From Gallionella sp. (GTDB lineage: Bacteria; Pseudomonadota; Gammaproteobacteria; Burkholderiales; Gallionellaceae), in contig JAQTMZ010000001.1 in assembly GCA_028714075.1 (NCBI GenBank), forward strand, positions 279,753-343,752: a DNA stretch of 64,000 nucleotides, in the 5' to 3' direction. The notes beneath the pieces were generated by a model. The model was not told the origin of the DNA. It saw only the letters and a program-made list of their open reading frames with translations, and searched no databases. The translations under genes and the position numbers were made by a program. This document shows positions 12,039-47,061 of this stretch, piece by piece. Every line of letters starts with the position of its first letter. The first letter of the stretch is position 1.

Positions 12039-12074
12039 TTAATTTTGAATTAACTGAATTATTAGGAGAACAAC

Positions 12075-12449: not shown

Positions 12450-12465
12450 GGTTGTCTGTTGAAGA

Positions 12466-12618: not shown

Positions 12619-16693
<4,075 letters not shown>

Positions 16694-16695
<2 letters not shown>

Positions 16696-16772
16696 GGAGT
16701 AGGGAGTGGGGAGTAGGGAGTGGAAAAGCCCACTCGCCACTTCCCACTCACCACTTTCCACTCTCCACTCAC
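16694..16772. repeat. Heptamer tandem-repeat hairpin (AGGGAGT)4...(CACTCNC)6
   Basis: 7-bp periodic arms, mutually complementary, in the rpoB-rpoC spacer. Confidence 0.85.
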
Positions 16773-16791
16773 CAGATTTTAGGAGTCACAC

Positions 16792-21033
<4,242 letters not shown>

Positions 21034-29697: not shown

Positions 29698-30097
29698 AAG
29701 AAAATACCGCAAGGAACAGAAGGGCCGCAATACCGGCATTGCCACCCGTGGCAATAAGGTGAGTTTCGGCGAGTTTGGTTTGAAGGCGGTTGGGCGCGGT
29801 CGTTTGACGGCACGTCAGATCGAAGCGGCGCGTCGCGCGATGACGCGTCATATCAAGCGCGGAGGACGTATCTGGATCCGTATTTTTCCGGATAAGCCGA
29901 TTTCCAAAAAACCTGCCGAAGTTCGCATGGGCAATGGCAAGGGCAATCCCGAGTTCTACGTCGCTGAAATTCAACCAGGCAAAATGCTGTACGAAATGGA
30001 TGGCGTGAATGAGGTATTGGCACGCGAAGCGTTTCAATTGGCATCCGCTAAATTACCAATTGCGACCACTTTTGTGGTCAGACAGGTAGGTGCGTAA
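29681..30097 (+). CDS. rplP: 50S ribosomal protein L16
   Basis: RMGNGKG, WIRIFPD. Confidence 0.99.
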
Positions 30098-30098
30098 T

Positions 30099-30290
30099 AT
30101 GAAAGCCAGTGAATTGAAAACCAAGTCCGCGGCGGATTTGCAACAGGAAATGCTATCGCTGACCAAGGCGCAATTTGGCCTGCGCATGCAGATTGCCACA
30201 CAGCAAATGGCCAATACCAGTGAGTTGCGCAAAGTGCGCCGCGATATCGCCCGCGTGAAAACCATATTGAAAGAGAAGGGTGCCAGCTGA
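30099..30290 (+). CDS. rpmC: 50S ribosomal protein L29
   Basis: MKASELK...RRDIARVKT. Confidence 0.97.
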
Positions 30291-30553
30291 TGAGCGAGCC
30301 AAAACTGAAACGTACCCTGACCGGTACTATAACAAGCGACAAGATGGACAAGACCGTCACGGTTCTGGTCGAACGCAAAGTGAAACATCCGTTGCTGGGC
30401 AAGATCATTCGCGTTTCCAAGAAATATCACGCCCATGATGAAGCCAATGAGTTTCATGCAGGTGACGTGGTAATGATTGAAGAATGCCGCCCGATTGCCA
30501 AAACCAAGAGCTGGCGTGTGGCCAAACTGCTTGAGAAAGCACAAGCAGCCTAG
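30290..30553 (+). CDS. rpsQ: 30S ribosomal protein S17
   Basis: [17 protein letters not shown]. Confidence 0.98.
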
Positions 30554-30640
30554 TCAGAGCCGGCTTTTGTTGTAACTGTCTTATGCGCCCTGCGGCTTGC
30601 TGCGGGGCGTTTTCATTGGCCTTTTAAAACCACAACTCAA

Positions 30641-30750
30641 GCCACAGAGTTCACCGAGAGACCGGCGATTTAACACGCTTTCGTGACTCACCCAAAAGGT
30701 GAATCACTATTCTCTTCAGCCGGTTGTTTTTCCTCTGTGACCTCTGTGGC
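30641..30750. repeat. Miniature palindromic element GCCACAGAG...CTCTGTGACCTCTGTGGC
   Basis: Terminal inverted repeats around an internal hairpin (TCACC/GGTGA). Confidence 0.65.
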
Positions 30751-30774
30751 AAAACGCTTTTGCTGGCTGATTGC

Positions 30775-30814
30775 AAAAAAACCGTCCATGCTTTGCAGCA
30801 TGGACGGTTTTTGT
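30775..30814. terminator. Bidirectional terminator between rpsQ and metK
   Basis: A run-ACCGTCCATGC...GCATGGACGGT-T run. Confidence 0.8.
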
Positions 30815-30848
30815 TATTTCAACAGCAGCGTGCGGGTTGTCTGTTCTG

Positions 30849-32012
30849 CTACAGCCCGGCATCTGCACGCAGTGCCGCAGCCTTATCTGTGCTCTCCCAT
30901 TTGAATTCGGGTTCTTCACGGCCAAAATGGCCATAGGCTGCCGTTTTCTGGTAGATCGGGCGCAGCAGGTCGAGCATTTGCACGATACCTTTCGGGCGCA
31001 GGTCAAAATGCTTTTTGACCAACTCCGCAATCTTTTCATCGGTTACTTTTCCGGTGCCGTAAGTGGTGACCCAGACGCTGGTCGGGTGCGCTACGCCGAT
31101 CGCATAAGAAATCTGGATCAGGCATTTGCTGGCCAAGCCGGCAGCGACAATATTTTTGGCTACATAGCGGCCGGCGTAAGCGGCCGAGCGGTCTACCTTG
31201 GACGGGTCCTTGCCGGAGAATGCACCACCGCCGTGCGGCGCTGCGCCGCCGTAGGTGTCGACAATAATCTTGCGCCCGGTCAGGCCACAGTCGCCCTGCG
31301 GGCCGCCGACGACAAAACGTCCGGTCGGGTTGACTAGATACTTGATGTCGCCCTTGATCAGTTCCTTCGGCAATATTGGTTTGATGATTTCCTCGATGAC
31401 CGCTTCACGGATTTGCGCCAGCGTCATTTCCGGCGCGTGCTGTGTCGAGATCACCACGGTGTCGATGGAGTGCGGTTTGCCATCCATATAGCGGACGGTA
31501 ACCTGCGATTTGGCGTCCGGGCGCAACCAGGGTAAACGGCCATCGCGGCGCAGTTGCGCCTGGCGTTCCATTGCGCGGTGTGCCAGGTAGATCGGCAGCG
31601 GCATCAAGGTATCGGTTTCGTCGCAGGCATAGCCGAACATCAGCCCCTGATCGCCCGCACCCTGATCCATGTTGTCGTCATAAGCCTTGTTCACGCCCTG
31701 CGCGATATCCGGACTCTGCTTGTCATAGGCCACCAGCACCGCACAACCCTTGTAGTCGATGCCGTATTCGGTATTGTCATAGCCGATGCGCTTGATGGTG
31801 TCGCGTGCCACCTGAATATAATCGACCACGGCGGCGGTGGTGATCTCGCCGGCCAGTACCACGAGGCCGGTGTTGCACAGCGTTTCGGCGGCAACGCGCG
31901 AATGCTTGTCCTGCGCTAGAATGGCATCGACGATGGCATCGGAAATTTGATCTGCCACTTTATCGGGGTGGCCTTCGGACACGGATTCGGACGTAAACAA
32001 ATATTCGCTCAT
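30849..32012 (-). CDS. metK: S-adenosylmethionine synthetase
   Basis: [28 protein letters not shown]. Confidence 0.98.
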
Positions 32013-32287
32013 GGTTTTTCGCTCAATCACTCAAAAATTAAATGGGCGGCCATTCTACCAAATCCGGCCAAACTTGGTAGCATTGCACTGAGAATGATGT
32101 AATCAAAGAGCCGATTTCTCTGCATGCTTTGCGGCTTGAATTGCAGTTTTTAAAGTCGTGCTTGGACTGCTTGAAATGACGAGGGTAGTATGGACAGGAC
32201 GAAATATTCGATTCGGCAAAACCATTGCCACCAAAGAAGATGGATGGCAGGCAGTTTCCCAACGAGCAGTATCAAGAGGGCGGTTGC

Positions 32288-32489: not shown

Positions 32490-32615
32490 GTGAAATTCGC
32501 GCAGCGATTCGTTTGCTCCCTCGCCCGCTTGCGGGATAACCAGCGACTTGGCTGCGGTCTGTTGCAGCCTAGTCGAATGGCTAGTTGTTTCATTCAGAGG
32601 GGTGGGGAGAGGGAA
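32490..32615 (-). repeat. Palindromic repeat (CCCTCTCCC family) with a nested ~60-bp insert
   Basis: Reverse complement matches 57322-57387 apart from an internal insertion and about 3 mismatches. Confidence 0.8.
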
Positions 32616-32664
32616 AAGGGCATGGCGGGTTTCATCATCGGGGGCGGTATATTTGCCATGACCG

Positions 32665-33279
32665 TTAGATATCCATCACTTCAAGAACGCTTAACACCTT
32701 CTGCACGCAATCCTGCAAATCCATCTCCGCTGTTTTTACCGTCAGTTCGGGCGCATCCGGCGGTTCGTAGGCAGAAGAAACACCGGTGAACTGGCCGATC
32801 TCCCCCGTGCGCGCTTTCTTGTACAGCCCCTTTACATCGCGCTGCTCGCATACTTCGATCGGGCATTGGCAATAAATCTCGATAAATTCGCCCGGCTGCA
32901 CCATGGCGCGCACCTTGTTGCGATCTTCGCGGAACGGTGAAATAAAGGCCGTCAGCACGATCACGCCAGCCTCCATGAAAAGCTTGGCGACTTCGCCGAC
33001 CCGGCGGATATTTTCAGCCCTGTCTGCTGCCGAAAATCCCAGATCCCCGCACAATCCATGGCGTACATTATCACCGTCCAGCACGAACGTCCGGCATCCC
33101 ATGCGATGCAGTTGCTCTTCCACGGCATGCGCCAGAGTTGACTTGCCTGCGCCTGAAAGCCCGGTAAACCAGAGAATGGCGCCGCGATGTTTGTTCATCG
33201 CCTCGCGCCGCGCGCGCGTTACCGTAGCGCGATGCCACACGACATTATCAGAAATCGAAGCGGTACTTTCATTTGCCAT
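32665..33279 (-). CDS. cysC: Adenylylsulfate (APS) kinase
   Basis: [33 protein letters not shown]. Confidence 0.96.
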
Positions 33280-33467
33280 GGTTCAGATTTTGATTCTTTG
33301 GCGTAAAGCGTTAAAAATTGATGTTGGAATATTGACAGGATACCGTGATGCGAGCCAAGCACAAATTATTTCTACATACTATGAATGTTATTTTAGGTGT
33401 TCGATCCGATTGGCTTTGTTAAAACTCAAGTAAAATACTTTGCAATGAATGATTGAGGATAGTGAGT

Positions 33468-35492
33468 GTGATACTAGGAAGAAACGATCCATGCATATGC
33501 GGCAGCGGGGAAAAGTACAAAAAATGCTGTGGCAGGCTCGAGTCCGGCCTGCCAGTTCAATCACGGCAGCAAAGTATCGATAACACTACACAGAACAGCT
33601 CTGTGAAGGGCGCTGTGCCTGTGCAAGACGAGTTTAACCAACTTATGGCCCTGTACAACGCCGGACACTATGCGGAGTTGGAAAGCAGGGCACATTTGCT
33701 GCTTGAGCAGCACCCGGATTCCGGGCTTGCCTGGAAAATACTGGGAGCTACTCTTCAGGTGCAAGGCAAAGACAGCTTGCACGCTTTGCGGAAGGCGACG
33801 GAGTTTTCACCCAATGATGCCGAGGCACATAACAATCTGGGTGCCGCCTTCAAGGATATAGGCAGGATGGATGAGGCCGAGGCTAGCCTTCGGCGCGCAC
33901 TGGAGATCAAACCGGAAATTGCCGAGGTACATAGCAATCTAGGTCAAATCCTGCTGGCGCAATGCAGGTTTGACGAGGCCGAGGTCAGTTATCGGCGGGC
34001 ATTAAAGATCAAACCTGGTTATGCCGAGGCATACGGTGGTTTGGGAGGAGCTCTCTTGTATATGGGTTGCCTGAACGAGGCAGAGGTCAACTGCCGGCGG
34101 GCGCTGGATATCCAGCCTGGTTTAGCCGAAGCGTACTGCAATTTGGGTGAAATATTAAGGCTTCAGGGACGCCTAGGCGAGGCCGAGGCCAGCTTTCGGC
34201 GGGCACTGGAGATCAAACCGGATTTCGTCGACGCATGGAGCACTTTGTTGTTTTCCTGTGGCTACCATGCCTTGCTTGATCCACGTGAATATCTTGCCCA
34301 AGCCCGCAATTGGGAACTGGACTGCGTGTCTGCACAGGACCGTCAGGCTGCGCATAACCGGACTTTTAACCGCATACCGCTCGCTGGCATGCGTCTGAGG
34401 GTGGGTTATGTGTCGGGAGATTACCGCCAGCACGCAGTGAGCTACTTTATAGAGCAGCTTTTCGCCCACCATGACCGTGCGCGAATAGAGCTATTCGCCT
34501 ATTCCAACCATGTGCAAAGCGATACCGTCACAGAACGTTTGCGAGCGCTGGTGGAACACTGGGTTCCAATCGCGGGAATTCCCGATGCGGCAATCCGGGA
34601 ACGGATAGAGGCAGACGGCATCGATGTGCTGATCGATCTGTCCGGCCACACCGGCCATAGCCGTCTAGGGATTTTTGCCCGCCGTGCCGCGCCAGTGCAG
34701 GCCCATTACCTGGGTTATTTCGCCAGCACGGGATTGACGGAAATGGACTACTGGATCGGCGATGAAATCCTGACCCCTCCAGAAACAGACAGCCATTTTA
34801 GCGAACGGGTCTGGCGCTTGCCGCGGGTGTGGGTAAGCTATGACGGCAAGGCTGGCGTTCCCGTTCCCGATTGGCAGCCAAGTCAGGACGGTGTCGTATG
34901 GTTGGGGAGTTTTAATAATCTGAGCAAGCTGACGCCAGCGACCCTGAACCTTTGGGCAAAGGTGCTCCATGCTCTGCCGGAGGGCAAGCTGCTGCTGAAG
35001 ACCAAAGAGCTAAGCGATAATGTTACTCGCCAGCGTATTTTGGATGCCATGTCGGGCTATGGCATTGGATCCGATCGCATTGAACTGCAAGGCAGCAGCG
35101 CCACGCCTGGTTGGATGGAGCATATGGCCTATTACAACCGGCTGGATATTGCGCTCGACCCTGTCGGCGGCGTGGGTGGCGGCACCACTACTTGCGATGC
35201 ACTGTGGATGGGGGTGCCGGTCATTGCCTGCGAGGGGGACCGTATGGCGTCGCTTATGACCGCCTCCATGCTGAACGCCGTCGGCCGCTCGGAATGGGTA
35301 GCACGCTCTGAGGCGGAATACATGGGCAAGGTTATTGCGCTTGCCCGTGATGTGGAACAGCGCAAGGCGCTTCGCTTTGTCCAGCGCAACCGGATGGCTT
35401 CCAGCCCGTTGTGCGATGCGCGTGGTTTGGCCATGTCCTTGGAGAATGCCTACTTTGAGATGTTCGAGCGGTGGTTCGATGAGAAAAATTAG
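33468..35492 (+). CDS. SEC-C + TPR + SPINDLY-like GT41 glycosyltransferase (copy A)
   Basis: GRNDPCICGSGEKYKKCC; four tandem 34-aa TPRs; RVGYVSGDYRQHAV, DLSGHT, GSFNNLSK, TTTCDALWMGVPV. Confidence 0.9.
   Translation: MILGRNDPCICGSGEKYKKCCGRLESGLPVQSRQQSIDNTTQNSSVKGAVPVQDEFNQLMALYNAGHYAELESRAHLLLEQHPDSGLAWKILGATLQVQGKDSLHALRKATEFSPNDAEAHNNLGAAFKDIGRMDEAEASLRRALEIKPEIAEVHSNLGQILLAQCRFDEAEVSYRRALKIKPGYAEAYGGLGGALLYMGCLNEAEVNCRRALDIQPGLAEAYCNLGEILRLQGRLGEAEASFRRALEIKPDFVDAWSTLLFSCGYHALLDPREYLAQARNWELDCVSAQDRQAAHNRTFNRIPLAGMRLRVGYVSGDYRQHAVSYFIEQLFAHHDRARIELFAYSNHVQSDTVTERLRALVEHWVPIAGIPDAAIRERIEADGIDVLIDLSGHTGHSRLGIFARRAAPVQAHYLGYFASTGLTEMDYWIGDEILTPPETDSHFSERVWRLPRVWVSYDGKAGVPVPDWQPSQDGVVWLGSFNNLSKLTPATLNLWAKVLHALPEGKLLLKTKELSDNVTRQRILDAMSGYGIGSDRIELQGSSATPGWMEHMAYYNRLDIALDPVGGVGGGTTTCDALWMGVPVIACEGDRMASLMTASMLNAVGRSEWVARSEAEYMGKVIALARDVEQRKALRFVQRNRMASSPLCDARGLAMSLENAYFEMFERWFDEKN
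34268..35467 (+). repeat. 1,200-bp direct repeat, copy 1
   Basis: Appears identical to 42146-43345 (offset 7,878); identical spurious ORFs recur at this offset in the track. Confidence 0.9.
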
Positions 35493-35524
35493 CAAGATTT
35501 GCACAACTACGTAAAATAGCGTGC

Positions 35525-36316
35525 ATGAAAAAAACTGACTCGGTACCGACAAACTGGCGCACTCCCCTTGAGACGCGCCCTGATCTTAACTTCGTCGTAA
35601 GGGATATGCAACGCACATTTCTGCGTGTGGCCGACAATCTGCGCTGGTACGAGCAGACTTGGCTCGGCGTCCCGATCTGGCAATTGCCGGATGACTTGGT
35701 AGCATTGCAGCGCATCGTGTCCGATGTCAATCCGAAGTGGATAGTCGAGACGGGCACCAAATTTGGCGGCTCGGCTATTTTTTTTGCATCGCTACTGGCG
35801 ATGATGGGGCGCACCGCCGAGTCTGGTGGCGGTATCATTACGGTGGATGTGCATGAAACGACCGAGGCGAAGGAGCTTTTGTTAGACAAGCCACACCGTT
35901 TTGCACCTTTGGTGCGCCAACGCCTGATTGGTGATGCCAAGGCGCCTGAAATACTTGCCTCCATAAGCGCAACGATTGCGGCTGATCCAGGCTCGGTGAT
36001 GGTTTTTCTAGACGATTGGCATGATGGTGACCATGTCTATGCCGAGATGTTGGTCTACTCAGAACTGGTGACACCGGGGGGAATCCTGATTGTCGCAGAT
36101 ACCACTTTCGAGGATCTGGCGGATACACCGGTAGTGGTGCCCAGCGAAAAATATCCCGATGCAAAGCGTTCCAATCCGCGTGTGGCATTAAGGCGCTTCC
36201 TGTCCGAACGCAGCGATTTTGCGGTGATTACGGATTACACTTCCACGGGGATCAGCAATTTTCCAGACAGCGTGCTGCGCAAGGCAGGGCTGGAAGCGCA
36301 CGGCAATTCAGCATGA
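35525..36316 (+). CDS. CmcI/cephalosporin-hydroxylase-family (sugar O-)methyltransferase
   Basis: WLGVPIWQLPDD, WIVETGTKFGGSA, VFLDDWHDGDHV, GGILIVADT. Confidence 0.85.
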   Translation: MKKTDSVPTNWRTPLETRPDLNFVVRDMQRTFLRVADNLRWYEQTWLGVPIWQLPDDLVALQRIVSDVNPKWIVETGTKFGGSAIFFASLLAMMGRTAESGGGIITVDVHETTEAKELLLDKPHRFAPLVRQRLIGDAKAPEILASISATIAADPGSVMVFLDDWHDGDHVYAEMLVYSELVTPGGILIVADTTFEDLADTPVVVPSEKYPDAKRSNPRVALRRFLSERSDFAVITDYTSTGISNFPDSVLRKAGLEAHGNSA

Positions 36317-36837
36317 TCCGTAAAGGGATACACCCTTCCGCCGTGGTGGAAAACTTGGGGTCTGTTCTGATACCCGAGAGCACAATAATAGAACCGCTTG
36401 CAGTGGTGTTTGTTGGCGGGCGGGGCAGGCTCAATCTAGGCGAGATGAACACGATCTATCCCGGTGCGACTATCCGCATTGATCAGGGATGGATGGAAAC
36501 CGGGAGAGAGGTGTCATTTGGCTCGGGTTGTCATATCTACGAACCTCGCGCCGGCCTTACCATTGGCGATCACAGTATGATTGGGGGTGGAGTGCTGATT
36601 TGCGGGGTGAATCATGGGTATGCCATTCGGGGTGAGCCCATGCGCCATCAGCCAGTTGAGGCAGCACCCATTGTGATCGGGAAGGATGTGTGGGTTGGTA
36701 TGGGCGCCATCATTTTGCCCGGCGTCACACTCGGAGACGGTGCAATTATTGCTGCCGGGGCGGTGGTGACATCCGACGTAGCACCAGGGGCTGTGGTAAG
36801 CGGTGTTCCGGCACGATTTGCGAAACACAGGGAGTAG
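36313..36837 (+). CDS. Left-handed beta-helix (hexapeptide) acyltransferase
   Basis: NHGY, PIVIGKDVWVG, AGAVVTSDV, GVPAR. Confidence 0.9.
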   Translation: MIRKGIHPSAVVENLGSVLIPESTIIEPLAVVFVGGRGRLNLGEMNTIYPGATIRIDQGWMETGREVSFGSGCHIYEPRAGLTIGDHSMIGGGVLICGVNHGYAIRGEPMRHQPVEAAPIVIGKDVWVGMGAIILPGVTLGDGAIIAAGAVVTSDVAPGAVVSGVPARFAKHRE

Positions 36838-36843
36838 AAAATT

Positions 36844-37380
36844 ATGAAACTTCATCTGGGTTGCGGCCCTCGTTATATACCGGGGTTTGTACATGTTGAC
36901 GCGCAGCATGCACCTCATGTGGATATTGTCGGGCCGGTAGAGTGCTTGCCGATGGATGACAATAGCGCCTCCCTGATCTATGCCAGCCATGTGCTGGAGC
37001 ACTTCGGGCGACATGCCTATAAAGAGGTACTCAAGGAATGGTTCCGGGTGCTGAAACCCGGCGGCATACTGCGCCTGTCGGTTCCGGACTTTGCCGCCTG
37101 CGCGGCGATTTATTACGAGAACGGTTTGGCCGATGGGCTAAGTGGACTGGTCGGCCTGATCATCGGCGGGCAGCGCAATGAGCACGACTTTCATAAAATG
37201 ATTTTTGATGAAGATTTTTTGCGCCGTGATCTTCTTTCGATCGGTTTTCGTGAAGTGCGGCGCTGGGATTGGCGGGCGACCGAGCACGCCGAAGTCGATG
37301 ACTATTCACAGGCGCACATACCGCACCTGCATAAAGAGGATGGCAGGTTGATGAGCCTCAACATTGAGGCCGTCAAGTAG
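36844..37380 (+). CDS. Class I SAM-dependent methyltransferase
   Basis: KLHLGCG, SHVLEH, RVLKPGGILRLSVPD. Confidence 0.88.
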   Translation: MKLHLGCGPRYIPGFVHVDAQHAPHVDIVGPVECLPMDDNSASLIYASHVLEHFGRHAYKEVLKEWFRVLKPGGILRLSVPDFAACAAIYYENGLADGLSGLVGLIIGGQRNEHDFHKMIFDEDFLRRDLLSIGFREVRRWDWRATEHAEVDDYSQAHIPHLHKEDGRLMSLNIEAVK

Positions 37381-37457
37381 TTGCGGGAGGGTGTGGCAGT
37401 GGGTCATCAGATCACCGAGGGTGTAATAAACCCAAATAATCCATTAACCCAAAGCTG

Positions 37458-37484
37458 CGTCATTCGGCGCAGGCCGGAATGACG
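37458..37484. repeat. Collapsed REP-like palindrome CGTCATTC-GGCGCAGGCC-GGAATGACG
   Basis: Inverted repeat in the methyltransferase-manC spacer. Confidence 0.5.
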
Positions 37485-37583
37485 GGCTAGTGGACTACCC
37501 GGGATAAACTCAAAACTCGAATCAAAAATGGTAAGTAAAAAATCGACTGTTGCCAACGTAATATTTTAGGGGAAGGTGGCATT

Positions 37584-39107
37584 TTGAAGCAGAAAAGTAT
37601 TTGTGCGACTATTCTCGCTGGTGGTAGCGGTAGCCGCTTGTGGCCGCTATCGCGCCGACATTTGCCCAAACAATTTCTGTCACTGAATGGTGACATGTCG
37701 CTGCTGCAAACCACCATCAACCGCCTGGCACCGGTGATTGATGCCAAGAATATCCTGATTGTCACGCAAGAGGCACTCGCCAAAGGCGAGGCTTATCACG
37801 CACTGCTGCCCTATCAGAGCCTGTTTGAACCGGTTGGGCGTAACACTGCCCCGGCCATCGCCCTGGCGGCCGCCTACCTGATGTTGGATGGCGCGGATCC
37901 TATCATGGTCGTGTTGCCTGCCGACCACATCATCAAAGATGAAGTGCGTTTTCTCGCGCATTTGAATATTGCGATTGAAGCTGCCGAGAGTGGCAAGCTC
38001 ATTACCTTCGGCATTCAGCCCACTCGACCTGATACCGGCTTCGGCTATATCAAAGCTAAAAAAAGGACTGAGTGCCAAGAACCGAGGACTGAGGAGCGGG
38101 GGCCGAGTGCAAAAGCAGCGAGTGGTTCTACTCAGCCCGCAGCCCTCGAACCTCATTCCTGTATTTATGAAGTCGAGCGCTTTATCGAAAAGCCAGACCA
38201 CGCTACCGCCGAGCACTTTCTCAAGGAAGGCGATTTCTATTGGAACTCCGGCATGTTCGTCTGGCGTGCTTCGGTGATTCTGGCTGAAATCGAGCAACAC
38301 CTGCCTGCTGTTTATCAGGTAATTCAAAACATCATTGCAGAGAGCTACTCCGCTGGAACATTCCAGCAAGCCGTAGAAAATCACTTCGCCGCCATGCCCT
38401 CAGTTTCCATCGATTACGGCGTATTGGAGAAATCCAGCCGCGTATCATTGATCCGCTGCGACATCGGCTGGAACGATGTGGGCAGTTGGCAGGCCGTTCA
38501 CGAAATTTCCGCCAAAGATGAAAACGGTAATGTGCTGCAAGGCAACGTCATCGCACTGGATTGCAAAAATAGTTTGATCCGTGCCGAGAAACGACTGGTT
38601 GCTGCCATCGGCGTGGAAGATATTTGCGTTATCGAAACTGCCGATGCGGTACTGATCTCAAAAAACGACCAGACTCAGCGTGTGCGCGAAGTGGTCGATG
38701 TCCTTCATCATTGCGGTGCGACCGAGCATGTTTATCACGCCAAGGTCAATCGTCCGTGGGGTAGCTACACAATACTGGAGGAAGATCAGGAAGGCTTCAA
38801 GATCAAACGCATCGAAGTTGCTCCGGGTGCGCGACTCAGCCTGCAAAGTCATAATCAGCGCTCCGAGCATTGGGTAGTAGTCGCCGGCACGGCAACCATT
38901 ACTAATGGTGATGAAGTGATTACCGTGCAGAAAAACCAGAGTACCTACATTCCGATAGGCGCGAAACATCGCTTGGAAAATCGTGCTAGCGAACCGTTGC
39001 ACATCGTTGAAGTGCAGGTTGGTAACTATCTGGACGAGGATGACATTCAGCGATATGAAGATAATTACGGCAGGCAGCCAGCAATCACAAAGGGTATTGA
39101 AAAATGA
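37584..39107 (+). CDS. manC: Mannose-1-P guanylyltransferase/mannose-6-P isomerase with ~32-aa insertion
   Basis: [31 protein letters not shown]-terminal cupin ([12 protein letters not shown]). Confidence 0.95.
38064..38160. repeat. Heptamer tandem-repeat hairpin inside manC, in frame
   Basis: (AGGACTG)-like x6 ... (CTCAGCC)-like x4; encodes [32 protein letters not shown]. Confidence 0.75.
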
Positions 39108-40198
39108 GCCCAACTAAAAAAGTTGCATTGATCACCGGCATTACCGGACAGGACGGGGCCTACCTTGCCGAGTTCCTGCTTAAAAAAGGCTATGACGTAC
39201 ATGGCGTTAAACGGCGCTCATCCCTGTTCAACACGGACCGTATCGATCACCTTTACCAAGATCCGCACGTCAATGATGCGCACTTTTTTTTGCACTACGG
39301 CGACCTGACCGATTCTACCAACCTGATCCGCATCATCCAGCAGGTGCAGCCCGACGAGATATACAATCTCGCGGCGATGAGCCATGTCGCGGTTTCCTTT
39401 GAAACACCCGAATACACTGCTAATGTAGATGGCGTAGGGACGCTACGTATTCTCGAAGCGATCCGTATCCTCGGTATGGAAAAGAAAACCCGTTTCTACC
39501 AGGCATCCACCTCCGAGCTATACGGACTGGTGCAGGAAACTCCGCAAAAGGAAACCACGCCGTTCTATCCGCGCAGCCCCTACGCAGTGGCCAAGCTATA
39601 CGCTTACTGGATTACCATCAATTACCGCGAGGCTTATGGCATCTACGCTTGCAACGGTATCCTGTTCAATCACGAAAGCCCCGTTCGCGGTGAAACCTTT
39701 GTCACGCGCAAGATCACCCGCGCTTTGGCTCGCATCAAACTCGGCCTACAGGATTGCCTTTACCTCGGCAATCTCGATGCACTGCGCGATTGGGGGCACG
39801 CTAAAGACTATGTCGAAATGCAATGGCTGATGTTGCAGCAGGAGCAAGCCGAGGATTTTGTGATCGCCACTGGCGTACAGTACAGCGTGCGCCAGTTCGT
39901 CGAAATCGCGGCGCAGGAACTGGGTATCAGCATCAAATGGCAAGGCTCAGGGGCGAACGAAAAAGGCTGCAACGCTGCCGGACAATGCATCGTGCAAGTC
40001 GATCCGCGTTACTTCCGCCCCACCGAAGTCGAAACCCTGCTGGGTGATCCCACTAAAGCCAAACAAAAACTCGGCTGGACAACGAAGATCACCTTCCACG
40101 AAATGGTGGCCGAAATGGTGTGCGAAGATCTCAAGAGCGCCGAGCGCGATGAACTGGTCAAAAAGCACGGCTTTGCCGCATACGATTACCACGAATAA
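39104..40198 (+). CDS. gmd: GDP-mannose 4,6-dehydratase
   Basis: GITGQDG, YQASTSE, SPYAVAK. Confidence 0.98.
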
Positions 40199-40207
40199 AG
40201 AGCATCG

Positions 40208-41191
40208 ATGGACAAGCACAGCAAAATCTACATCGCCGGTCATTGTGGCCTTGCCGGTAGCGCAATCATGCGCGAGCTGCAACGGCAAGGCTACACCAAT
40301 CTGGTAGGGCGTACGCACGCCGAACTGGACTTGGAAGACGCTGTTGCCACACATCAATTCTTCGAGCAAGAGCGTCCTCAGGTGGTATTTTTGGCTGCGG
40401 CCAAAGTCGGCGGCATCCATGCCAACAGCACCTATCCGGTGGAATTCCTGATGAGCAACCTGCTGGTTGAGGCCAGCGTCTGCCGTGCTGCTCACGCGAC
40501 AGACGTGAAACGACTGATCTTTCTGGGGAGCTCCTGCATCTACCCGCGCGATTGCCCGCAGCCGATCAAGGAAGAATATCTGCTCACCGGCCCACTCGAA
40601 GCAACCAACCGTCCTTATGCTCTGGCCAAGATCGCCGGTATCGAAATGTGCTGGTCATATAATCGTCAGTATGGCACCAAATGGCTGGCTGCGATGCCGA
40701 CCAACTTGTATGGCCCCGGCGACAGTTACGATTTGAATAATTCCCATGTTCTGCCCGCGCTGATCCGCAAGATGCACGAGGCGAAAGTTTCCGGTGCGAC
40801 TGAGGTGGTGTTGTGGGGCAGCGGCAAACCCAAGCGCGAGTTTATGTATGTAGATGATCTGGCGAATGCGTTGGTGTTCTTGGCGGCTTTGGACGATCAG
40901 TGTTACAACTTATTAGTTGCTCCCGCTTTGTGTCCGATTATCAATATTGGCACAGGCGAAGACGTAACCATTCGCGAACTAGCAGAGGTAATTGCTGGCG
41001 TAGTGGGTTACACAGGCAAGTTTATACAAGATACACACCAACCGGATGGCACAATGCGTAAGGTACTGGATGTGTCAAAGATTCAAGGCTTGGGGTGGCA
41101 GGCGAGTACAAACCTAAAAAAAGGCATTGGTTTAACCTACAATGAATTTAGCAAATTGGCTCCAATTCCAGATAGGGCTGCCGCTAATTGA
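40208..41191 (+). CDS. fcl: GDP-L-fucose synthase
   Basis: AAAKVGGIHAN, LGSSCIYP, YALAK, PTNLYGP, SHVLPAL. Confidence 0.96.
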   Translation: MDKHSKIYIAGHCGLAGSAIMRELQRQGYTNLVGRTHAELDLEDAVATHQFFEQERPQVVFLAAAKVGGIHANSTYPVEFLMSNLLVEASVCRAAHATDVKRLIFLGSSCIYPRDCPQPIKEEYLLTGPLEATNRPYALAKIAGIEMCWSYNRQYGTKWLAAMPTNLYGPGDSYDLNNSHVLPALIRKMHEAKVSGATEVVLWGSGKPKREFMYVDDLANALVFLAALDDQCYNLLVAPALCPIINIGTGEDVTIRELAEVIAGVVGYTGKFIQDTHQPDGTMRKVLDVSKIQGLGWQASTNLKKGIGLTYNEFSKLAPIPDRAAAN

Positions 41192-41450
41192 CTACCGACA
41201 ACCGTTCGGTTTGGCCCTTCGGTTTCACTCAGGACTAAAGATATTGTTGAAGGCAAGTAGTGGCAAGGTAATTGTGATTCGACAGGTTCTGATAACAGTT
41301 AATTAGTGACTAATGCGATACTCTGTGCTAAGCCACTGTTTAGCTACGAGCGGCTTAGTTGAGGTTTGCCCGCCCTATGCCGGTTGTGTCATGAAGTTAA
41401 GTCCGTGAGATAAAATGCCCCGCAAAGAATCGGTCGAAGGAATGTAATAA

Positions 41451-43367
41451 ATGAGATCAGGAAGAAACGATCCGTGCATCTGCGGTAGCGGGAAGAAATA
41501 CAAGAAATGCTGTGGCCAGCCCGAACCCAGCTTACCGGTTCAACCACGGCAACCTCAAAATACTGCTGCGCATAACCGCTCTGCGACGGGTGTAACGCCT
41601 GCACAAGACGAATTAAATCACCTTGCCGGGTTGTTTAATGCAGGCCGCCATGCGGAGTTGGAAAGTCGGACGCGCCTGCTGCTTGAGCGGTATCCGGATT
41701 CCGGACTTGTTTGGAAAATACTGGGAGCTATTCTTCAGATACAAGGCAAAGACAGCTTGTCCGCTTTGCAGAAGGCAGCGGAACTTCTACCTGATAGTGC
41801 CGATGTATACAACAATCTGGGCCTCGCCTTTATGGATGTGGACAGACTGGATGAGGCCGAGGCCAGCCTTCGGCACGCACTGAAGATTAAACCGGGTTTT
41901 GCTGAGGCATGTAGCAATCTTGGCATCGTTCTCAGGAGCATGGCTCGATTGGATGAAGCAGAAGCCAGCTACCGGCGGGCGCTTCAGACCGAGCCTGATT
42001 ATGCCGAGGCGCACTACAATTTGGGTATCACCCTTCAGGAGTTGGGACGCCTGAACGAGGCCGAGGCCAGCTTTCGGCGGGCACTGGAGATCAAGCCGGA
42101 TTATGCCAGGGCGCATAGCAATATGCTTTTTCTCCACGGCTATCGTGCCTTGCTTGATCCACGTGAATATCTTGCCCAAGCCCGCAATTGGGAACTGGAC
42201 TGCGTGTCTGCACAGGACCGTCAGGCTGCGCATAACCGGACTTTTAACCGCATACCGCTCGCTGGCATGCGTCTGAGGGTGGGTTATGTGTCGGGAGATT
42301 ACCGCCAGCACGCAGTGAGCTACTTTATAGAGCAGCTTTTCGCCCACCATGACCGTGCGCGAATAGAGCTATTCGCCTATTCCAACCATGTGCAAAGCGA
42401 TACCGTCACAGAACGTTTGCGAGCGCTGGTGGAACACTGGGTTCCAATCGCGGGAATTCCCGATGCGGCAATCCGGGAACGGATAGAGGCAGACGGCATC
42501 GATGTGCTGATCGATCTGTCCGGCCACACCGGCCATAGCCGTCTAGGGATTTTTGCCCGCCGTGCCGCGCCAGTGCAGGCCCATTACCTGGGTTATTTCG
42601 CCAGCACGGGATTGACGGAAATGGACTACTGGATCGGCGATGAAATCCTGACCCCTCCAGAAACAGACAGCCATTTTAGCGAACGGGTCTGGCGCTTGCC
42701 GCGGGTGTGGGTAAGCTATGACGGCAAGGCTGGCGTTCCCGTTCCCGATTGGCAGCCAAGTCAGGACGGTGTCGTATGGTTGGGGAGTTTTAATAATCTG
42801 AGCAAGCTGACGCCAGCGACCCTGAACCTTTGGGCAAAGGTGCTCCATGCTCTGCCGGAGGGCAAGCTGCTGCTGAAGACCAAAGAGCTAAGCGATAATG
42901 TTACTCGCCAGCGTATTTTGGATGCCATGTCGGGCTATGGCATTGGATCCGATCGCATTGAACTGCAAGGCAGCAGCGCCACGCCTGGTTGGATGGAGCA
43001 TATGGCCTATTACAACCGGCTGGATATTGCGCTCGACCCTGTCGGCGGCGTGGGTGGCGGCACCACTACTTGCGATGCACTGTGGATGGGGGTGCCGGTC
43101 ATTGCCTGCGAGGGGGACCGTATGGCGTCGCTTATGACCGCCTCCATGCTGAACGCCGTCGGCCGCTCGGAATGGGTAGCACGCTCTGAGGCGGAATACA
43201 TGGGCAAGGTTATTGCGCTTGCCCGTGATGTGGAACAGCGCAAGGCGCTTCGCTTTGTCCAGCGCAACCGGATGGCTTCCAGCCCGTTGTGCGATGCGCG
43301 TGGTTTGGCCATGTCCTTGGAGAATGCCTACTTTGAGATGTTCGAAGAAAAAATGGGGCAAGGATGA
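41451..43367 (+). CDS. SEC-C + TPR + SPINDLY-like GT41 glycosyltransferase (copy B)
   Basis: GRNDPCICGSGKKYKKCC; three tandem TPRs; catalytic part identical to copy A. Confidence 0.9.
   Translation: MRSGRNDPCICGSGKKYKKCCGQPEPSLPVQPRQPQNTAAHNRSATGVTPAQDELNHLAGLFNAGRHAELESRTRLLLERYPDSGLVWKILGAILQIQGKDSLSALQKAAELLPDSADVYNNLGLAFMDVDRLDEAEASLRHALKIKPGFAEACSNLGIVLRSMARLDEAEASYRRALQTEPDYAEAHYNLGITLQELGRLNEAEASFRRALEIKPDYARAHSNMLFLHGYRALLDPREYLAQARNWELDCVSAQDRQAAHNRTFNRIPLAGMRLRVGYVSGDYRQHAVSYFIEQLFAHHDRARIELFAYSNHVQSDTVTERLRALVEHWVPIAGIPDAAIRERIEADGIDVLIDLSGHTGHSRLGIFARRAAPVQAHYLGYFASTGLTEMDYWIGDEILTPPETDSHFSERVWRLPRVWVSYDGKAGVPVPDWQPSQDGVVWLGSFNNLSKLTPATLNLWAKVLHALPEGKLLLKTKELSDNVTRQRILDAMSGYGIGSDRIELQGSSATPGWMEHMAYYNRLDIALDPVGGVGGGTTTCDALWMGVPVIACEGDRMASLMTASMLNAVGRSEWVARSEAEYMGKVIALARDVEQRKALRFVQRNRMASSPLCDARGLAMSLENAYFEMFEEKMGQG
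42146..43345 (+). repeat. 1,200-bp direct repeat, copy 2
   Basis: Appears identical to 34268-35467. Confidence 0.9.
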
Positions 43368-45391
43368 CAAGTATGAAACCTGGAAGAAACGACCCATGCA
43401 TTTGCGGCAGCGGGAAAAAATACAAAAAATGCTGTGGCCAGCCCGAACCCGGCTTGCCGGTTCAATCACGGCAACACCGGAATATCGCTGCGCAAAACAG
43501 CCTTGCAAAGGGTGCAGCACCTGCACAAGATGAATTAAATCGGCTTATCGCCCTGTACAACGCCGGAAGTTATGCGGAGCTGGAAAACCGGACATATCTG
43601 CTGCTTGATCGGTATCCGGATTCCGGGTTTACCTGGAAAGTATTGGGCGTAACCCTTCAGATGCAGGGCAAAGACAGCCTGCCTGCCTTGCGGAAAGCGA
43701 CAGAACTTTTGCCGGACGATGCAGATGCGCATTACAACCTTGGGAATACCCTCATGATGCTGGGGCGGTTGGACGAGGCCGAGGCCAGCTACCGGTGCGC
43801 GCTACGGATTCAACCGGATTATGTCGACGCTTATTATAATTTGGGGAATACCCTGCGGAACATGGGTCGCATTGGTGAGGCAGAAGCCAGCTACCGGCAG
43901 GCACTGCGGATCAAGCCGGATTACGCCGAAGTGTATAGCAATCTGGGGAACGTCATGCTGGAACAGGGTCGGCTAGCCGAGGCCGAGGCCAGCTACCGGC
44001 AGGCGTTACGGATCAAACCGGATTATGCTGCGGCGCATTACAATCTGGGTAATTTTCTTCATGACCGGAGTCGTCTGGATGAGGCCGAGGCCAGTTTCCG
44101 GCGGGTGCTGCAAATCAAGCCGGACTATGCCGATGCGCACAGTAATTTGGGCAATGTCCTTCAGGATATGGGTCGGCTGGCCGAGGCTGAGGCCAGTTAC
44201 CGGCGGGCGTTACAGAACAAGCCTGACCACGCCGAAGCATATAGCAATCTGGGGAATACCCTTCTGGAGTTGGGCCGCATAGCTGAGGCCGAGGCCAGCC
44301 ATCGACATGCGCTGGAAATCAAACCGGACTTTGTTGAGGGGCGTTTCAATTTTACGCTGGCAAAAAAGGCGAAGGCTGGCGACGAAAACCTGGTGGCATT
44401 GGAAGCCGCCGAGGAAGCGGTGCGGGACGGCACCGCCACGCTATCGAATAAAGAGGCGGTGTACCTGCATTTTGCGCTGGGTAAAAGCTATGACGACCTC
44501 GGCGATTACGAAAAAGCCTTTCCGCATTTCCTCGAAGGCTGCAAGCTGAAGCGCGCTACATTTGGCCATGATCCAGATCATGCCTCGCGGCTTTTTGCCG
44601 GCATCATGCGCAATCTTGATGCAGCGGCGATAGACCGGCTGCGTGGCGGCGGCGATCCCTCGAATCTGCCGATTTTCGTGCTGGGCATGCCGCGCTCTGG
44701 CACCACGCTCACCGAGCAGATTATCGCCAGCCATCCCGAGGTTCACGGCGCCGGGGAGTTGCCCGACCTGATACGGATTGCGCGGCGCGACATTGACGGT
44801 GCTGCCTTCCCGGATAACCTGCGCCTGTTCGACCAGGCGCGGCTCAGCGCTTGGGGGGCGGAATATGTAGCCGGCTTGCAGCGGCGCGCACCGGATGCGC
44901 GCCGCATCACCGACAAGATGCCGGAGAATTTTCTGGTTGTCGGTCTGATCCACCTGATGCTGCCTAACGCGAAGATCATCCATGTCAACCGCAATCCGGT
45001 GGATACCTGCCTGTCCTGCTTTACCAAACTGTTCAAGCACCAGCATGAATACACCTACGATCTGGCCGAGCTGGGGCGCTACTATGCCGGTTATGCCCGC
45101 CTGATGGACCATTGGCGCAAGGTGTTGCCAGGCGGCGCCTTCCTCGATGTGCGGTATGAAGATCTGGTGGCGGACCAGGAGGCGCAGTCGCGCCGCATCA
45201 TCGGGTATTGTGGGCTGGAGTGGAACGATGCATGTATCGATTTTTACAACAACAAGCGCCCGGTAAGCACTGCCAGCATGGCGCAGGTGCGCCAGCCGAT
45301 GTACAAATCGTCGGTGGAACGCTGGCGGCATTATGAGAAATTCCTCGGGCCGTTGCTCGATGCGCTCGGTGAGCTTGTTACCGAGCGGTAA
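43364..45391 (+). CDS. SEC-C + TPR + PAPS-dependent sulfotransferase
   Basis: GRNDPCICGSGKKYKKCC; six tandem TPRs; GMPRSGTTL (5'-PSB loop), RNPVDTCLS (3'-PB), VRYEDLV. Confidence 0.9.
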   Translation: MTSMKPGRNDPCICGSGKKYKKCCGQPEPGLPVQSRQHRNIAAQNSLAKGAAPAQDELNRLIALYNAGSYAELENRTYLLLDRYPDSGFTWKVLGVTLQMQGKDSLPALRKATELLPDDADAHYNLGNTLMMLGRLDEAEASYRCALRIQPDYVDAYYNLGNTLRNMGRIGEAEASYRQALRIKPDYAEVYSNLGNVMLEQGRLAEAEASYRQALRIKPDYAAAHYNLGNFLHDRSRLDEAEASFRRVLQIKPDYADAHSNLGNVLQDMGRLAEAEASYRRALQNKPDHAEAYSNLGNTLLELGRIAEAEASHRHALEIKPDFVEGRFNFTLAKKAKAGDENLVALEAAEEAVRDGTATLSNKEAVYLHFALGKSYDDLGDYEKAFPHFLEGCKLKRATFGHDPDHASRLFAGIMRNLDAAAIDRLRGGGDPSNLPIFVLGMPRSGTTLTEQIIASHPEVHGAGELPDLIRIARRDIDGAAFPDNLRLFDQARLSAWGAEYVAGLQRRAPDARRITDKMPENFLVVGLIHLMLPNAKIIHVNRNPVDTCLSCFTKLFKHQHEYTYDLAELGRYYAGYARLMDHWRKVLPGGAFLDVRYEDLVADQEAQSRRIIGYCGLEWNDACIDFYNNKRPVSTASMAQVRQPMYKSSVERWRHYEKFLGPLLDALGELVTER

Positions 45392-45469: not shown

Positions 45470-45498
45470 TTGACAGTGCTTCCATCCGCTTCTATAGT
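45470..45498 (+). promoter_or_regulatory. Near-consensus sigma70 promoter of cyc2
   Basis: TTGACA-17-TATAGT. Confidence 0.8.
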
Positions 45499-45580: not shown

Positions 45581-46930
45581 ATGAAGAAAATCGTTCTCTC
45601 ACTGGCAGGCGTGTTGGCAGCAACCGCATTTGCTCCTGAAGCATCGGCTATCCCGTCGTTTGCCCGTCAAACCGGCATGGCGTGTAACTCTTGCCACTTT
45701 AATTCTTACCCAGCGCTGACCAGTTTCGGTCGTGCGTTCAAGTCCGGCGGCTACACCATGATGGGCGCGCAAGCCAAGGTTGAAGGCGATCACGGTCTGT
45801 CTATTCCTGCAACCCTGAACGCTTCGGTTTATACGCAAATGCGTTACATCAAAACCAATGGCTCAAGCTTTGCGGCTGGCAGCACTAAGGTTGCCAACGA
45901 AGGCCGCTTCGACGTTCCAGACGAAATGGCCCTGTTCCTGGGTGGCCGCGTATCTGAAAACATCGGCGCAATGGTGGAAGTTGCAATACCTGGTACGGTA
46001 ACCATGGCCAACCTCAAGATGCCGTTTGTGTTCGATGCGGGTGGTGCGAAATTAGGCTTTATCCCTTTCACCACGAACGGTCTTGGCCCAGCAGCAGCTT
46101 TTGACCTGTTCGGCACCGGCTCCAACGCCGCCGGCCGCGTCACTGAAAACGGTATTGGCTATAGCGCCGCAGAATATCTGGGTACAACGAACGCCAAGGC
46201 TGCAACCGGCGTAGCGCTGGTGGCAAGCAGCGACCAGTTCCATGTGGCCGTGACTCCTTATTCCGGCACGGGTGCTGCTGTGCAAACATCCAAACTGGGC
46301 GCAACCTATCTGCGCGCCGCTTGGACACCCAGCTATAACAACTGGGATCTGGGTTTGGGTCTGCAGAACTTCAGCGGCAAGCCTAACAGGGGCCTCGCGG
46401 CTACAACTCTAGATCAGAGCGAAGATCGTGCGACTATCGTTGACTTCCAGGCTCAAGGCGAAGCAGGCGGTATGCCTTTGGGTATCTATGGTAGCTATGG
46501 TACTGCCCCTGCGTCTACTGTAGGCGCAGTTGCAGGTGGAGCAGGCTTCAACAACCTGAACATCAGCCAAACTAATCGCAGGACCTCCTTCGGTTTGCTG
46601 GGCGATTTGTGGGTAATGCCCGGCACCTTGGGTCTGCAACTCGGCTTCATGCGCGCCAAAACAGGTTTGGCTAACACCAATACCACCGGACAGGAAAACG
46701 ACAATTCCTACACGATCGGCGCACGTTACAAGATGCGTCAAAACGTGAAGCTGGGCTTGGCTTACACCAAGTTCTCCGGTTCCGCGTATGACATCGGTGG
46801 TTCCGGTGGCGCCAATACGGCCAACTACGCTCCTATCGCAGCAGCCGGTACTCTGGGTGCAGCGGCGGGTGGCGTGGCAGGTGGATTGGGTAATAGCCGC
46901 CTGACACTCATCCTGTCCGCCGGTTGGTAA
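45581..46930 (+). CDS. cyc2: Cyc2 outer-membrane cytochrome-porin (Fe(II) oxidase candidate)
   Basis: Signal peptide, then IPSFARQTGMACNSCH...PALTSFGRAFK..GY signature with a single CxxCH; beta-barrel ending in W. Confidence 0.93.
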   Translation: MKKIVLSLAGVLAATAFAPEASAIPSFARQTGMACNSCHFNSYPALTSFGRAFKSGGYTMMGAQAKVEGDHGLSIPATLNASVYTQMRYIKTNGSSFAAGSTKVANEGRFDVPDEMALFLGGRVSENIGAMVEVAIPGTVTMANLKMPFVFDAGGAKLGFIPFTTNGLGPAAAFDLFGTGSNAAGRVTENGIGYSAAEYLGTTNAKAATGVALVASSDQFHVAVTPYSGTGAAVQTSKLGATYLRAAWTPSYNNWDLGLGLQNFSGKPNRGLAATTLDQSEDRATIVDFQAQGEAGGMPLGIYGSYGTAPASTVGAVAGGAGFNNLNISQTNRRTSFGLLGDLWVMPGTLGLQLGFMRAKTGLANTNTTGQENDNSYTIGARYKMRQNVKLGLAYTKFSGSAYDIGGSGGANTANYAPIAAAGTLGAAAGGVAGGLGNSRLTLILSAGW

Positions 46931-47008: not shown

Positions 47009-47030
47009 AAACAAAAGCAGTTGATGTATA

Positions 47031-47061
47031 ACAGGGGAGACTTCGGTCTCCCCTGTTTTTT
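47031..47061 (+). terminator. cyc2 terminator
   Basis: ACAGGGGAGAC-TTCG-GTCTCCCCTGT-TTTTT. Confidence 0.9.

Follow-up and report, generated by a model that had tools for sequence, protein, structure and literature searches.

A mosaic island of GT41 glycosyltransferase, GDP-fucose and sulfotransferase genes in Gallionella sp., a candidate for TPR-guided glycosylation and decoration of an exported protein

Of the 42 types of flagellin glycosylation island catalogued in Enterobacteriaceae, 14 encode glycosyltransferases of family GT41 (COG3914, the 'SPINDLY family'), which often bear methyltransferase domains and are joined by O-acetyltransferase and sugar-synthesis genes (De Maayer and Cowan 2016, PMC4875605). 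FlmG of Caulobacter and Brevundimonas is a soluble flagellin O-glycosyltransferase that combines tetratricopeptide repeats (TPRs), which bind flagellin (PMC7591256), with a GT-B glycosyltransferase domain that chooses the donor (PMC7591256; bioRxiv 10.1101/2022.03.25.485807). In S. elongatus the GT41 enzyme Ogt is needed for glycosylation of PilA (bioRxiv 10.1101/2021.07.06.449578). From these three systems it is known that GT41-type enzymes, guided by TPRs, can glycosylate exported appendage proteins in the cytoplasm. The island of ten genes compared with them here lies at positions 32665-45391 of a 64,000-nt stretch (the window) of a Gallionella sp. genome of 2.83 Mb in 27 contigs; homologue names and the cyc2-like gene next to the island point to a Gallionellaceae-like iron oxidiser. 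Its genes were called from a list of open reading frames (ORFs) and, for the ten proteins, from Pfam and NCBIfam profiles. It codes for two GT41 enzymes (GT41a and GT41b), three tailoring enzymes, the GDP-fucose enzymes ManC, Gmd and Fcl, a TPR-sulfotransferase and the adenylyl-sulfate kinase CysC.

The reading preferred here, which we hold to be evenly poised between true and false, is that the enzymes of the island, guided by their TPRs, glycosylate and decorate an exported protein in the cytoplasm, with flagellin as the first candidate. Judged from its sequence, the island is a mosaic put together recently from three modules, each conserved on its own, and a duplicated GT41 gene. The modules are (i) a GT41 gene followed by genes for a CmcI-family methyltransferase, a hexapeptide-repeat acyltransferase (Hexa) and a small methyltransferase (MT11), (ii) the TPR-sulfotransferase gene with cysC and the adjoining cyc2, and (iii) a displaced manC-gmd-fcl cassette. 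An earlier interpretation made from the letters of this DNA alone (the sequence-only reading) had named the same genes, and the ORFs and profiles place every one of them where it had put them. It had taken them for a self-contained pathway; what is found instead is a mosaic whose modules are conserved separately. Its remark that the machinery of polysaccharide synthesis is missing holds: Pfam detects no flippase, polymerase, ABC exporter or priming transferase domain in the ten proteins, and the export, polymerase/ligase and priming genes that mark an O-antigen or exopolysaccharide (EPS) cluster are not among the ten; in relatives they stand beside the orthologous manC-gmd-fcl trio. By analogy, the logic of the island would be the same as in flagellin glycosylation islands, FlmG, the cyanobacterial Ogt-PilA system and HMW1C.

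The island resembles the enterobacterial flagellin islands in its association of soluble GT41 enzymes with S-adenosylmethionine (SAM) methyltransferases, an O-acetyltransferase of maltose/NeuD type and nucleotide-sugar genes, and relatives of its GT41s stand beside fliB in the flagellin loci of about 11 Gallionellaceae. It differs from them in lying outside a flagellar locus and in the addition of a TPR-sulfotransferase and cysC. It also has GDP-fucose genes, while the word "fucose" is absent from the main text of PMC4875605, and its GT41s carry an N-terminal SEC-C motif and share one catalytic domain between them. FlmG has the same soluble two-domain layout of TPRs and GT-B domain, and GT41a and GT41b show one catalytic domain joined to different TPR arms. 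The likeness to FlmG drawn here is one of architecture; FlmG uses CMP-pseudaminic or CMP-legionaminic acid as donor and is reportedly confined to Caulobacterales. PF13844 has a match in the Caulobacter control genome, which may or may not be FlmG. Ogt of S. elongatus is likewise a bacterial TPR-GT41 with an appendage subunit encoded alongside, an arrangement comparable to that of the GT41 subclade of loci L010 and L012/L054, whose members are flanked by type IV pilin genes. Ogt differs in its UDP-GlcNAc donor, and no prepilin or pilin gene was found within the window.

GT41a (33453-35492, plus strand) consists of a SEC-C zinc motif, about five TPRs and a Glyco_transf_41 domain, and its likely true start is a GTG at 33468 preceded by the ribosome-binding site GAGGA. 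GT41b (41451-43367, plus strand) has a SEC-C motif, about four TPRs and the same catalytic domain (Pfam). Both enzymes score 171 bits with PF13844, above its gathering score of 25. The longest exact match between them is a direct repeat of 1200 bp, with one copy at 34268-35467 within GT41a and the other at 42146-43345 within GT41b. Since this repeat is exact, GT41a and GT41b have one and the same catalytic domain and differ in their TPR arms alone, whose DNA is about 74% identical. A perfect repeat of 1.2 kb is the mark of recent recombination.

The TPRs of the two GT41s align to those of human OGT and keep the N-L-G motif, which we take to be OGT's peptide-binding Asn ladder; the six to seven TPRs of the sulfotransferase carry it too. 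In line with the cytoplasmic protein modification of the sequence-only reading, the three large proteins look like soluble, protein-directed enzymes, all of them having OGT/SPY-type TPRs with this motif. No signal peptide or membrane segment was noticed in them when their translations were read by eye, without a predictor. The first ~110 residues of GT41a, GT41b and the sulfotransferase are 66-72% identical, and each of the three SEC-C heads (33453-33560, 41451-41560 and 43364-43480) is followed by a linker rich in Pro, Gln, Ser and Thr. SPINDLY (SPY) auto-fucosylates its own disordered N-terminus, so that self-modification of the island enzymes is conceivable.

The nine plus-strand genes of the island are co-oriented and their junctions are mostly overlaps or gaps of at most 32 nt, with two larger gaps of ~203 and ~259 nt. 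The last 4 nt of GT41b, stop included, are also the first 4 nt of the sulfotransferase gene, and the stretch from GT41a to this gene showed no strong internal terminator. The genes manC, gmd, fcl and cysC are each present in a single copy in the 2.83-Mb genome.

GT41a is followed on the plus strand by the three tailoring genes. The first codes for a methyltransferase of the CmcI / rhamnosyl O-methyltransferase family (35525-36316; PF04989, 134 bits), the second for a hexapeptide-repeat O-acyl(acetyl)transferase of the maltose-OAT / WcaF / NeuD type (36313-36837; Pfam Hexapep, with weak NCBIfam matches to MAT, WcaF and NeuD) and the third for MT11, a small class I SAM methyltransferase (36844-37380; Pfam Methyltransf_11). 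A survey of GT41 homologues with one genome per species yielded 51 loci spanning 696 kb (median 12.8 kb, 35 loci of at least 10 kb). CmcI lies directly 3' of the GT41 homologue in seven other loci (50-84% identity), the complete CmcI-Hexa-MT11 trio is found in six loci and two of its three genes in two more (50-89% identity), and MT11 neighbours GT41 homologues in about 16. The stretch of the window that runs from the GT41a catalytic domain through the end of MT11 has a collinear counterpart in locus L001, at 81% DNA identity, and in L019 and L023 the trio stands inside a flagellar locus. Around the non-flagellar GT41 loci there is an excess of genes for methyltransferases, sulfotransferases and further TPR proteins and of pilin-like genes. 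None of the 51 loci has gmd, fcl, cysC or a sulfotransferase domain, and manC occurs in a single one, at a distance.

Two of the surveyed loci have further features of their own. In L033 a radical SAM/SPASM gene of the peptide- or cofactor-maturing type (12092-13192) is inserted between CmcI and the hexapeptide transferase, with a TPR-methyltransferase upstream. L053 (= L004) has seven GT41-type genes in a row at 730-16855, several with SEC-C heads, and the array ends with a fusion of GT41 and DegT aminotransferase followed by an ATP-grasp gene.

The link to flagellin comes from the relatives of the window enzymes. In a tree of 77 sequences the window pair belongs to a clade of 44 (support 100/99), termed here the Gly-loop clade after a loop described below, within which is nested a monophyletic subclade of 12 sequences (100/99), ten of them labelled flagellar-locus. 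Clustering of neighbouring ORFs reveals in about 11 Gallionellaceae the synteny GGDEF-fliC-flaG-fliD-fliS-fliT-fliK-flhB'-ycgR-methyltransferase-GT41-fliB, where the 445-aa Cys-rich protein encoded after GT41 is the flagellin lysine N-methylase FliB (282 bits, cut-off 85). SEC-C heads are present on four GT41s of the flagellar-locus subclade and on the second GT41 of L019. Because the GT41 relatives sit in flagellin or pilin contexts, the likely targets are dedicated exported proteins. The preference of the sequence-only reading for protein modification over O-antigen or EPS synthesis fits with these GT41s placed in flagellin loci by fliB.

The same genome has at C1:196-214 kb a GNAT gene, a TPR protein gene, fliC, flaG, fliD, the GT41 genes GT41c and GT41d, a hexapeptide acyltransferase gene, a second GNAT and two DegT genes, which is a classic flagellin glycosylation island. 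This segment (C1:196000-214500) adjoins thiC, and its GT41s of 886 and 909 aa are 37-39% identical to the window catalytic domain. The genome has three flagellin genes, located in C1:196-214 kb, ~120 nt past the end of the window and on contig 6. Membership of a flagellin cluster was found for the sister subclade and for GT41c and GT41d, not for the window island. The possibility that the island is part of a flagellar or pilus locus was rejected, as housekeeping genes extend toward fliC and the window has no pilin. Downstream of cyc2, the segment 47197-51278 codes for PrmC (306 bits), the MSHA-type secretin MshL (259 bits, cut-off 250) and a TPR protein.

The cassette between MT11 and GT41b is made of manC (37584-39107; TIGR01479, 548 bits, cut-off 373), gmd (39104-40198; TIGR01472, 603 bits, cut-off 415) and fcl (40208-41191; NF047922, 446 bits, slightly below the cut-off of 500), all on the plus strand. 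Homologues of fcl with 82-93% identity carry the name GDP-L-fucose synthase and, by family assignment, the cassette should lead from GDP-mannose to GDP-L-fucose. Its G+C content is ~52% as compared with 56%. Homologues of fcl with 84-87% identity were examined in three Gallionella-like relatives, where the orthologous manC-gmd-fcl trio opens an O-antigen-type cluster and is preceded by an HTH_24 gene in two of the three. One of these clusters has a Wzx flippase and a GT11 fucosyltransferase, one a GT10 fucosyltransferase and one Wzm/Wzt. DNA homology to the trios of L139 and L140 is limited to the coding region 37600-41150, and the HTH_24-headed polysaccharide cluster of the window's own genome (C1:112-144 kb) has no manC-gmd-fcl of its own. 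The cassette has therefore been moved out of its customary O-antigen surroundings and into the GT41 island, where it may feed the GT41s, lipopolysaccharide (LPS) synthesis or both. No GT10 fucosyltransferase was found in the genome by tblastn and by a motif scan validated on L139; no GT11 enzyme was found by motif scan only, without a positive control.

The last gene of the island (43364-45391, plus strand) codes for a SEC-C motif, six to seven TPRs and a sulfotransferase domain (PF13469, Sulfotransfer_3, 167 bits) whose best PDB sequence matches are tyrosylprotein sulfotransferases (TPSTs). An AlphaFold2 (AF2) model of the protein (pLDDT 84.7) gave TPSTs as all of its top 13 Foldseek hits (E 1e-9 to 4e-7, TM 0.52-0.60), followed by CurM/OLS, mycobacterial Stf and heparan-sulfate enzymes. 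TPST1, TPST2 and the tick TPST (PDB 5WRI, 3AP1, 8W5Z) are thus its best matches in sequence and in predicted fold, with PF13469 in common. Its PRSGTTL loop, presumably the PAPS-binding one (PAPS, 3'-phosphoadenosine 5'-phosphosulfate), aligns with the loops of TPST1 and tick TPST, and an invariant Glu falls at or next to the position of the catalytic base of TPSTs, the register being ambiguous by one residue. It differs from TPSTs in that identity is 20-25% and TM ~0.6, in its fusion to SEC-C and TPRs and in its predicted cytoplasmic location.

The family of this sulfotransferase counts >7900 matches, of which 84 loci were examined. The cysC gene adjoins the sulfotransferase gene in eight (it follows it in L055 and seven others), a GT41 gene is near in seven, in direct tandem in three, and gmd/fcl and flagellin genes are found in none. 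In 9-10 other loci the closest SEC-C-type orthologues of the sulfotransferase have a cyc2 homologue, 40-76% identical to the window Cyc2, as neighbour (L055, L056, L057/58, L062, L068, L069, L073 and L103, and ~5 kb off in L072). These are Gallionellaceae-type loci in which the flanks of the sulfotransferase-cyc2 pair differ, and the neighbouring cyc2 homologues share an N-terminal PxFARQTGMACxxCH motif. SEC-C-type loci with enough upstream sequence include nine with cyc2 and seven without it. The window's cyc2-like gene (45581-46930, plus strand) codes for a fused cytochrome-porin with a signal peptide and a CNSCH haem motif in its translation. The order in the window is inverted, the sulfotransferase gene preceding cyc2, which has a transcription unit of its own with a promoter-like site at 45470-45498 (11/12 matches) and a strong terminator at 47030-47057. 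This unit matches L055 at 77% DNA identity. As cyc2 is absent from all 51 GT41 loci, it was rejected as a general neighbour of such loci. A literature search found no paper on the pairing of cyc2 with a sulfotransferase.

The cysC gene (32665-33279, minus strand) codes for an adenylyl-sulfate kinase (APS_kinase, 233 bits). The sequence-only reading had described it as divergent, which is correct for its direction of transcription; the sequence is ordinary, with 314 bits for NF003013 against a cut-off of 163. The genes cysI-cysH-cysD-cysN lie elsewhere, at C1:152-157 kb (152000-157100), and the CysH homologue carries KRCCHIRK and GCAPCT (CC...CxxC), motifs that we take as the hallmark of reductases of the adenylyl sulfate (APS) type. 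Sulfate assimilation should then not need PAPS, which supports a dedicated role of cysC and makes its proposed supply of PAPS plausible. A divergent sequence of cysC and a need for it in assimilation were both rejected, on the NF003013 score and the CysH motifs, respectively. The 160-nt intergenic stretch 3' of cysC (32509-32668) has a counterpart of 81% identity in the intergenic region between PCMT and OEP on Gallionella contig L139. Further out, at 29681-32030, the S10 ribosomal-protein operon appears to end after L16, L29 and S17, with a convergent metK next and the remainder of the operon not adjacent.

Overall, the catalytic domain of the GT41s is closer to Arabidopsis SPY (PDB 7Y4I, 8DTF) than to OGT. 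GT41a aligns with SPY in one contiguous stretch (E 1.6e-103) with no intervening domain, and SPY is the top and best full-length PDB match of GT41b, again contiguous (E 1.1e-111). The alignments of both GT41s with human OGT are split by the OGT intervening domain. The shared C-lobe scores 121 bits with SPY, its best match, 117 with Thermobaculum OGT, 74-79 with animal OGTs (human 74) and 43 with XcOGT. The motifs GSFNNLSK and QHAVSYF, on which the sequence-only reading had relied, are really present and the first is nearer to SPY GSFNNLAK than to OGT NFNQLYK. All three versions align and have the Lys position in common, presumably the essential catalytic Lys of FNxLxK (K842 in human OGT, K665 in SPY).

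Donor specificity has been ascribed to a triad that is K689/A731/Y744 in SPY and L866/R904/C917 in OGT (PMC10027727). K689 of SPY reads the guanine of GDP-fucose and the small A731 gives it room (PMC10027727), while Y744 determines how large the sugar pocket is and binds O2 and O3 of fucose; Y744A sharply lowers SPY activity and Y744C leaves it barely detectable (Zhu et al., PMC9715652). The window GT41s keep the equivalent of K689 (LLLKTK, LVVKCK in SPY), have Tyr at the position of A731 (HMAYYN, HMQAYS in SPY) and, in place of Y744, a Gly-rich loop with a one-residue insertion (LDPVGGVGGGTT, LDTF-PYAGTT in SPY). The loop includes DPVGGVGGGTT and is common to all 44 sequences of the Gly-loop clade. 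True SPY-signature GT41s (K, A or S, Y) occur in the same gene arrays of other bacteria and form separate clades. The claim of a SPY-like enzyme is therefore right for overall similarity and mostly wrong for the donor-specificity signature, of which the Lys is the one residue kept of three, and the GT41 phylogeny proposed as a check sets the window pair in the Gly-loop clade, apart from the SPY-signature clades. A SPY signature in the island GT41s was accordingly rejected. Since only the Lys is kept and the Gly-loop clade is distinct, the window enzymes are best assigned, on these residues, to the "intermediate" prokaryotic group of Kumar et al. and not to SPY-type O-fucosyltransferases. The retained Lys is compatible with a GDP-sugar donor, and from the open Gly-rich loop one would expect the sugar to be larger than plain fucose or different from it; these GT41s may still transfer fucose itself.

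These elements can be arranged in a putative pathway. ManC, Gmd and Fcl would make, by family assignment, GDP-mannose and GDP-L-fucose. The CmcI methyltransferase, the hexapeptide acetyltransferase and the small methyltransferase would modify the sugar, while it is bound to the nucleotide or once it has been transferred. GT41a and GT41b might then put the same sugar on Ser/Thr of two acceptor proteins or two regions that are still unfolded in the cytoplasm. The TPR-sulfotransferase, translationally coupled to GT41b, would sulfate the glycan or the protein with PAPS from CysC. The most likely acceptor is flagellin, with pilin or the neighbouring Cyc2 as alternatives. Gene identities, mosaic structure, signature residues, synteny patterns and fold similarity were observed directly; we infer which sugar is donated, what accepts it, how the tailoring steps are ordered and which molecule receives sulfate.

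Several observations weigh against the preferred reading. The window pair is sister to the flagellar-locus subclade and stands outside it, and ~17 kb of housekeeping genes separate the island from the nearest flagellin gene. The conserved partner of the sulfotransferase is cyc2, not flagellar genes or GT41, and the loop at Y744 departs from SPY. The trio opens O-antigen-type clusters in the three relatives, and fucose can also be transferred by GT2 or GT4 enzymes, the screen of the genome having covered GT10 and GT11. An association of gmd/fcl with the Gly-loop GT41 clade or with the sulfotransferase was rejected, these genes being absent from all 51 and all 84 loci, respectively; the sequence-only reading had itself named the lack of a GT41-GDP-fucose gene association as what would speak against it. 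As a consequence of this absence the fucose link is unique to this genome and may be an accident of rearrangement. Such an accident is the core of the rival view in which the modules are unrelated: the cassette feeds LPS or EPS, the GT41 module uses another donor, the sulfotransferase and cysC work with cyc2 or another partner, and a recombination hot spot made them adjacent. Each module is conserved elsewhere separately and never with the others, DNA homology ends exactly at the module borders, the cassette has a lower G+C content, and the perfect 1.2-kb repeat is indicative of recent recombination. Behind an HTH_24 gene the trio heads O-antigen clusters in two of the three relatives, and the genome's own HTH_24-headed cluster lacks it. 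This unrelated origin has to account, however, for the common orientation of the genes from GT41a through the sulfotransferase gene, which overlap or are closely spaced and have no strong terminators among them, for a cassette flanked by two copies of one GT41 catalytic domain, for a genome in which no GT10 or GT11 fucosyltransferase was detected and for the guanine-reading Lys kept in the GT41s. We regard it as unlikely, if well worth keeping in mind.

The pairing with cyc2 raises the question of whether Cyc2, or another Sec-exported outer-membrane protein, is the target, modified in the cytoplasm by the sulfotransferase and here also by the GT41s; through the SEC-C head the enzymes might attach to SecB or to ribosomes. 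The GT41 enzyme HMW1C modifies the adhesin HMW1 while this is still in the cytoplasm, ahead of its export by Sec, which together with the 9-10 loci having cyc2 beside the sulfotransferase orthologue speaks for a target of this kind. The pairing may, however, be inherited synteny, because it is limited to the closest orthologues (at least 67% identical) and 7/16 SEC-C-type loci do without cyc2. Moreover, cyc2 has a strong promoter and terminator of its own and appears in no other GT41 locus, and SEC-C heads are also found on flagellar-locus GT41s, whose targets are not Sec-dependent. A Cyc2-type target is on balance improbable. Non-protein acceptors, that is a polysaccharide, a lipid or a small molecule such as a sulfated fucose-rich exopolymer managing Fe(III) precipitates, would suit fucose, methyl, acetyl and sulfate as typical polysaccharide decorations, and acyl- and glycolipid-type sulfotransferases figure among the next structural relatives after the TPSTs. 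The island has, however, no gene for export, polymerisation or priming, its TPR arms bear the N-L-G motif and the best structural relatives of its sulfotransferase act on protein tyrosines. To our knowledge, the GT41 members with a defined acceptor act on proteins. A non-protein acceptor seems to us the least probable of all. Hardly better placed is the strong form of the sequence-only reading, a SPINDLY-type regulatory system that adds a single O-fucose to many intracellular proteins. It is favoured by the contiguous match of the catalytic domain to Arabidopsis SPY as its nearest relative (C-lobe 121 bits, as opposed to 74 with human OGT), by the common FNNLxK, by the retained K689 with GDP-fucose genes in the same cluster and by the reported conservation of SPY-like genes in bacteria (PMC10027727). 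Yet just one of the three specificity residues is shared, and the two that differ include Y744, mutation of which leaves SPY nearly inactive; true SPY-signature GT41s belong to a different clade, gmd/fcl are missing from the homologous loci, and flagellin and pilin contexts of the relatives point to dedicated exported targets, structural proteins rather than many regulatory ones. We consider it very unlikely.

Two separate and more far-reaching ideas can be set beside these. The GT41 clade with its tailoring module may move a methylated or acetylated GDP-6-deoxyhexose, here derived from fucose, onto flagellin or another exported protein in the cytoplasm, and a TPST-like TPR-guided sulfotransferase may then sulfate that glycoprotein. 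In addition, sulfation may touch the iron-oxidation machinery of Gallionellaceae or its surroundings. These ideas, Gly-loop GT41s building a sulfated glycoprotein from a GDP-6-deoxyhexose and the sulfotransferase family as a conserved partner of Cyc2, are speculative and rather improbable. A literature search found no description of a bacterial sulfated O-fucosyl protein glycan or of a sulfated flagellin glycan.

A SPY-like overall sequence is insufficient to name a bacterial GT41 an O-fucosyltransferase. If the preferred reading of the island is true, the iron-oxidising Gallionellaceae would be a further group in which surface proteins are glycosylated in the cytoplasm under the guidance of TPRs, with genes that form large families there, and a large GT41 clade would gain a donor hypothesis, a GDP-6-deoxyhexose read by the Gly-rich loop. 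TPST-like sulfation with a dedicated supply of PAPS would likewise join the protein decorations of bacteria. The recurrent association of cyc2 with a TPR-sulfotransferase gene and cysC would then offer a lead for research on neutrophilic iron oxidation.

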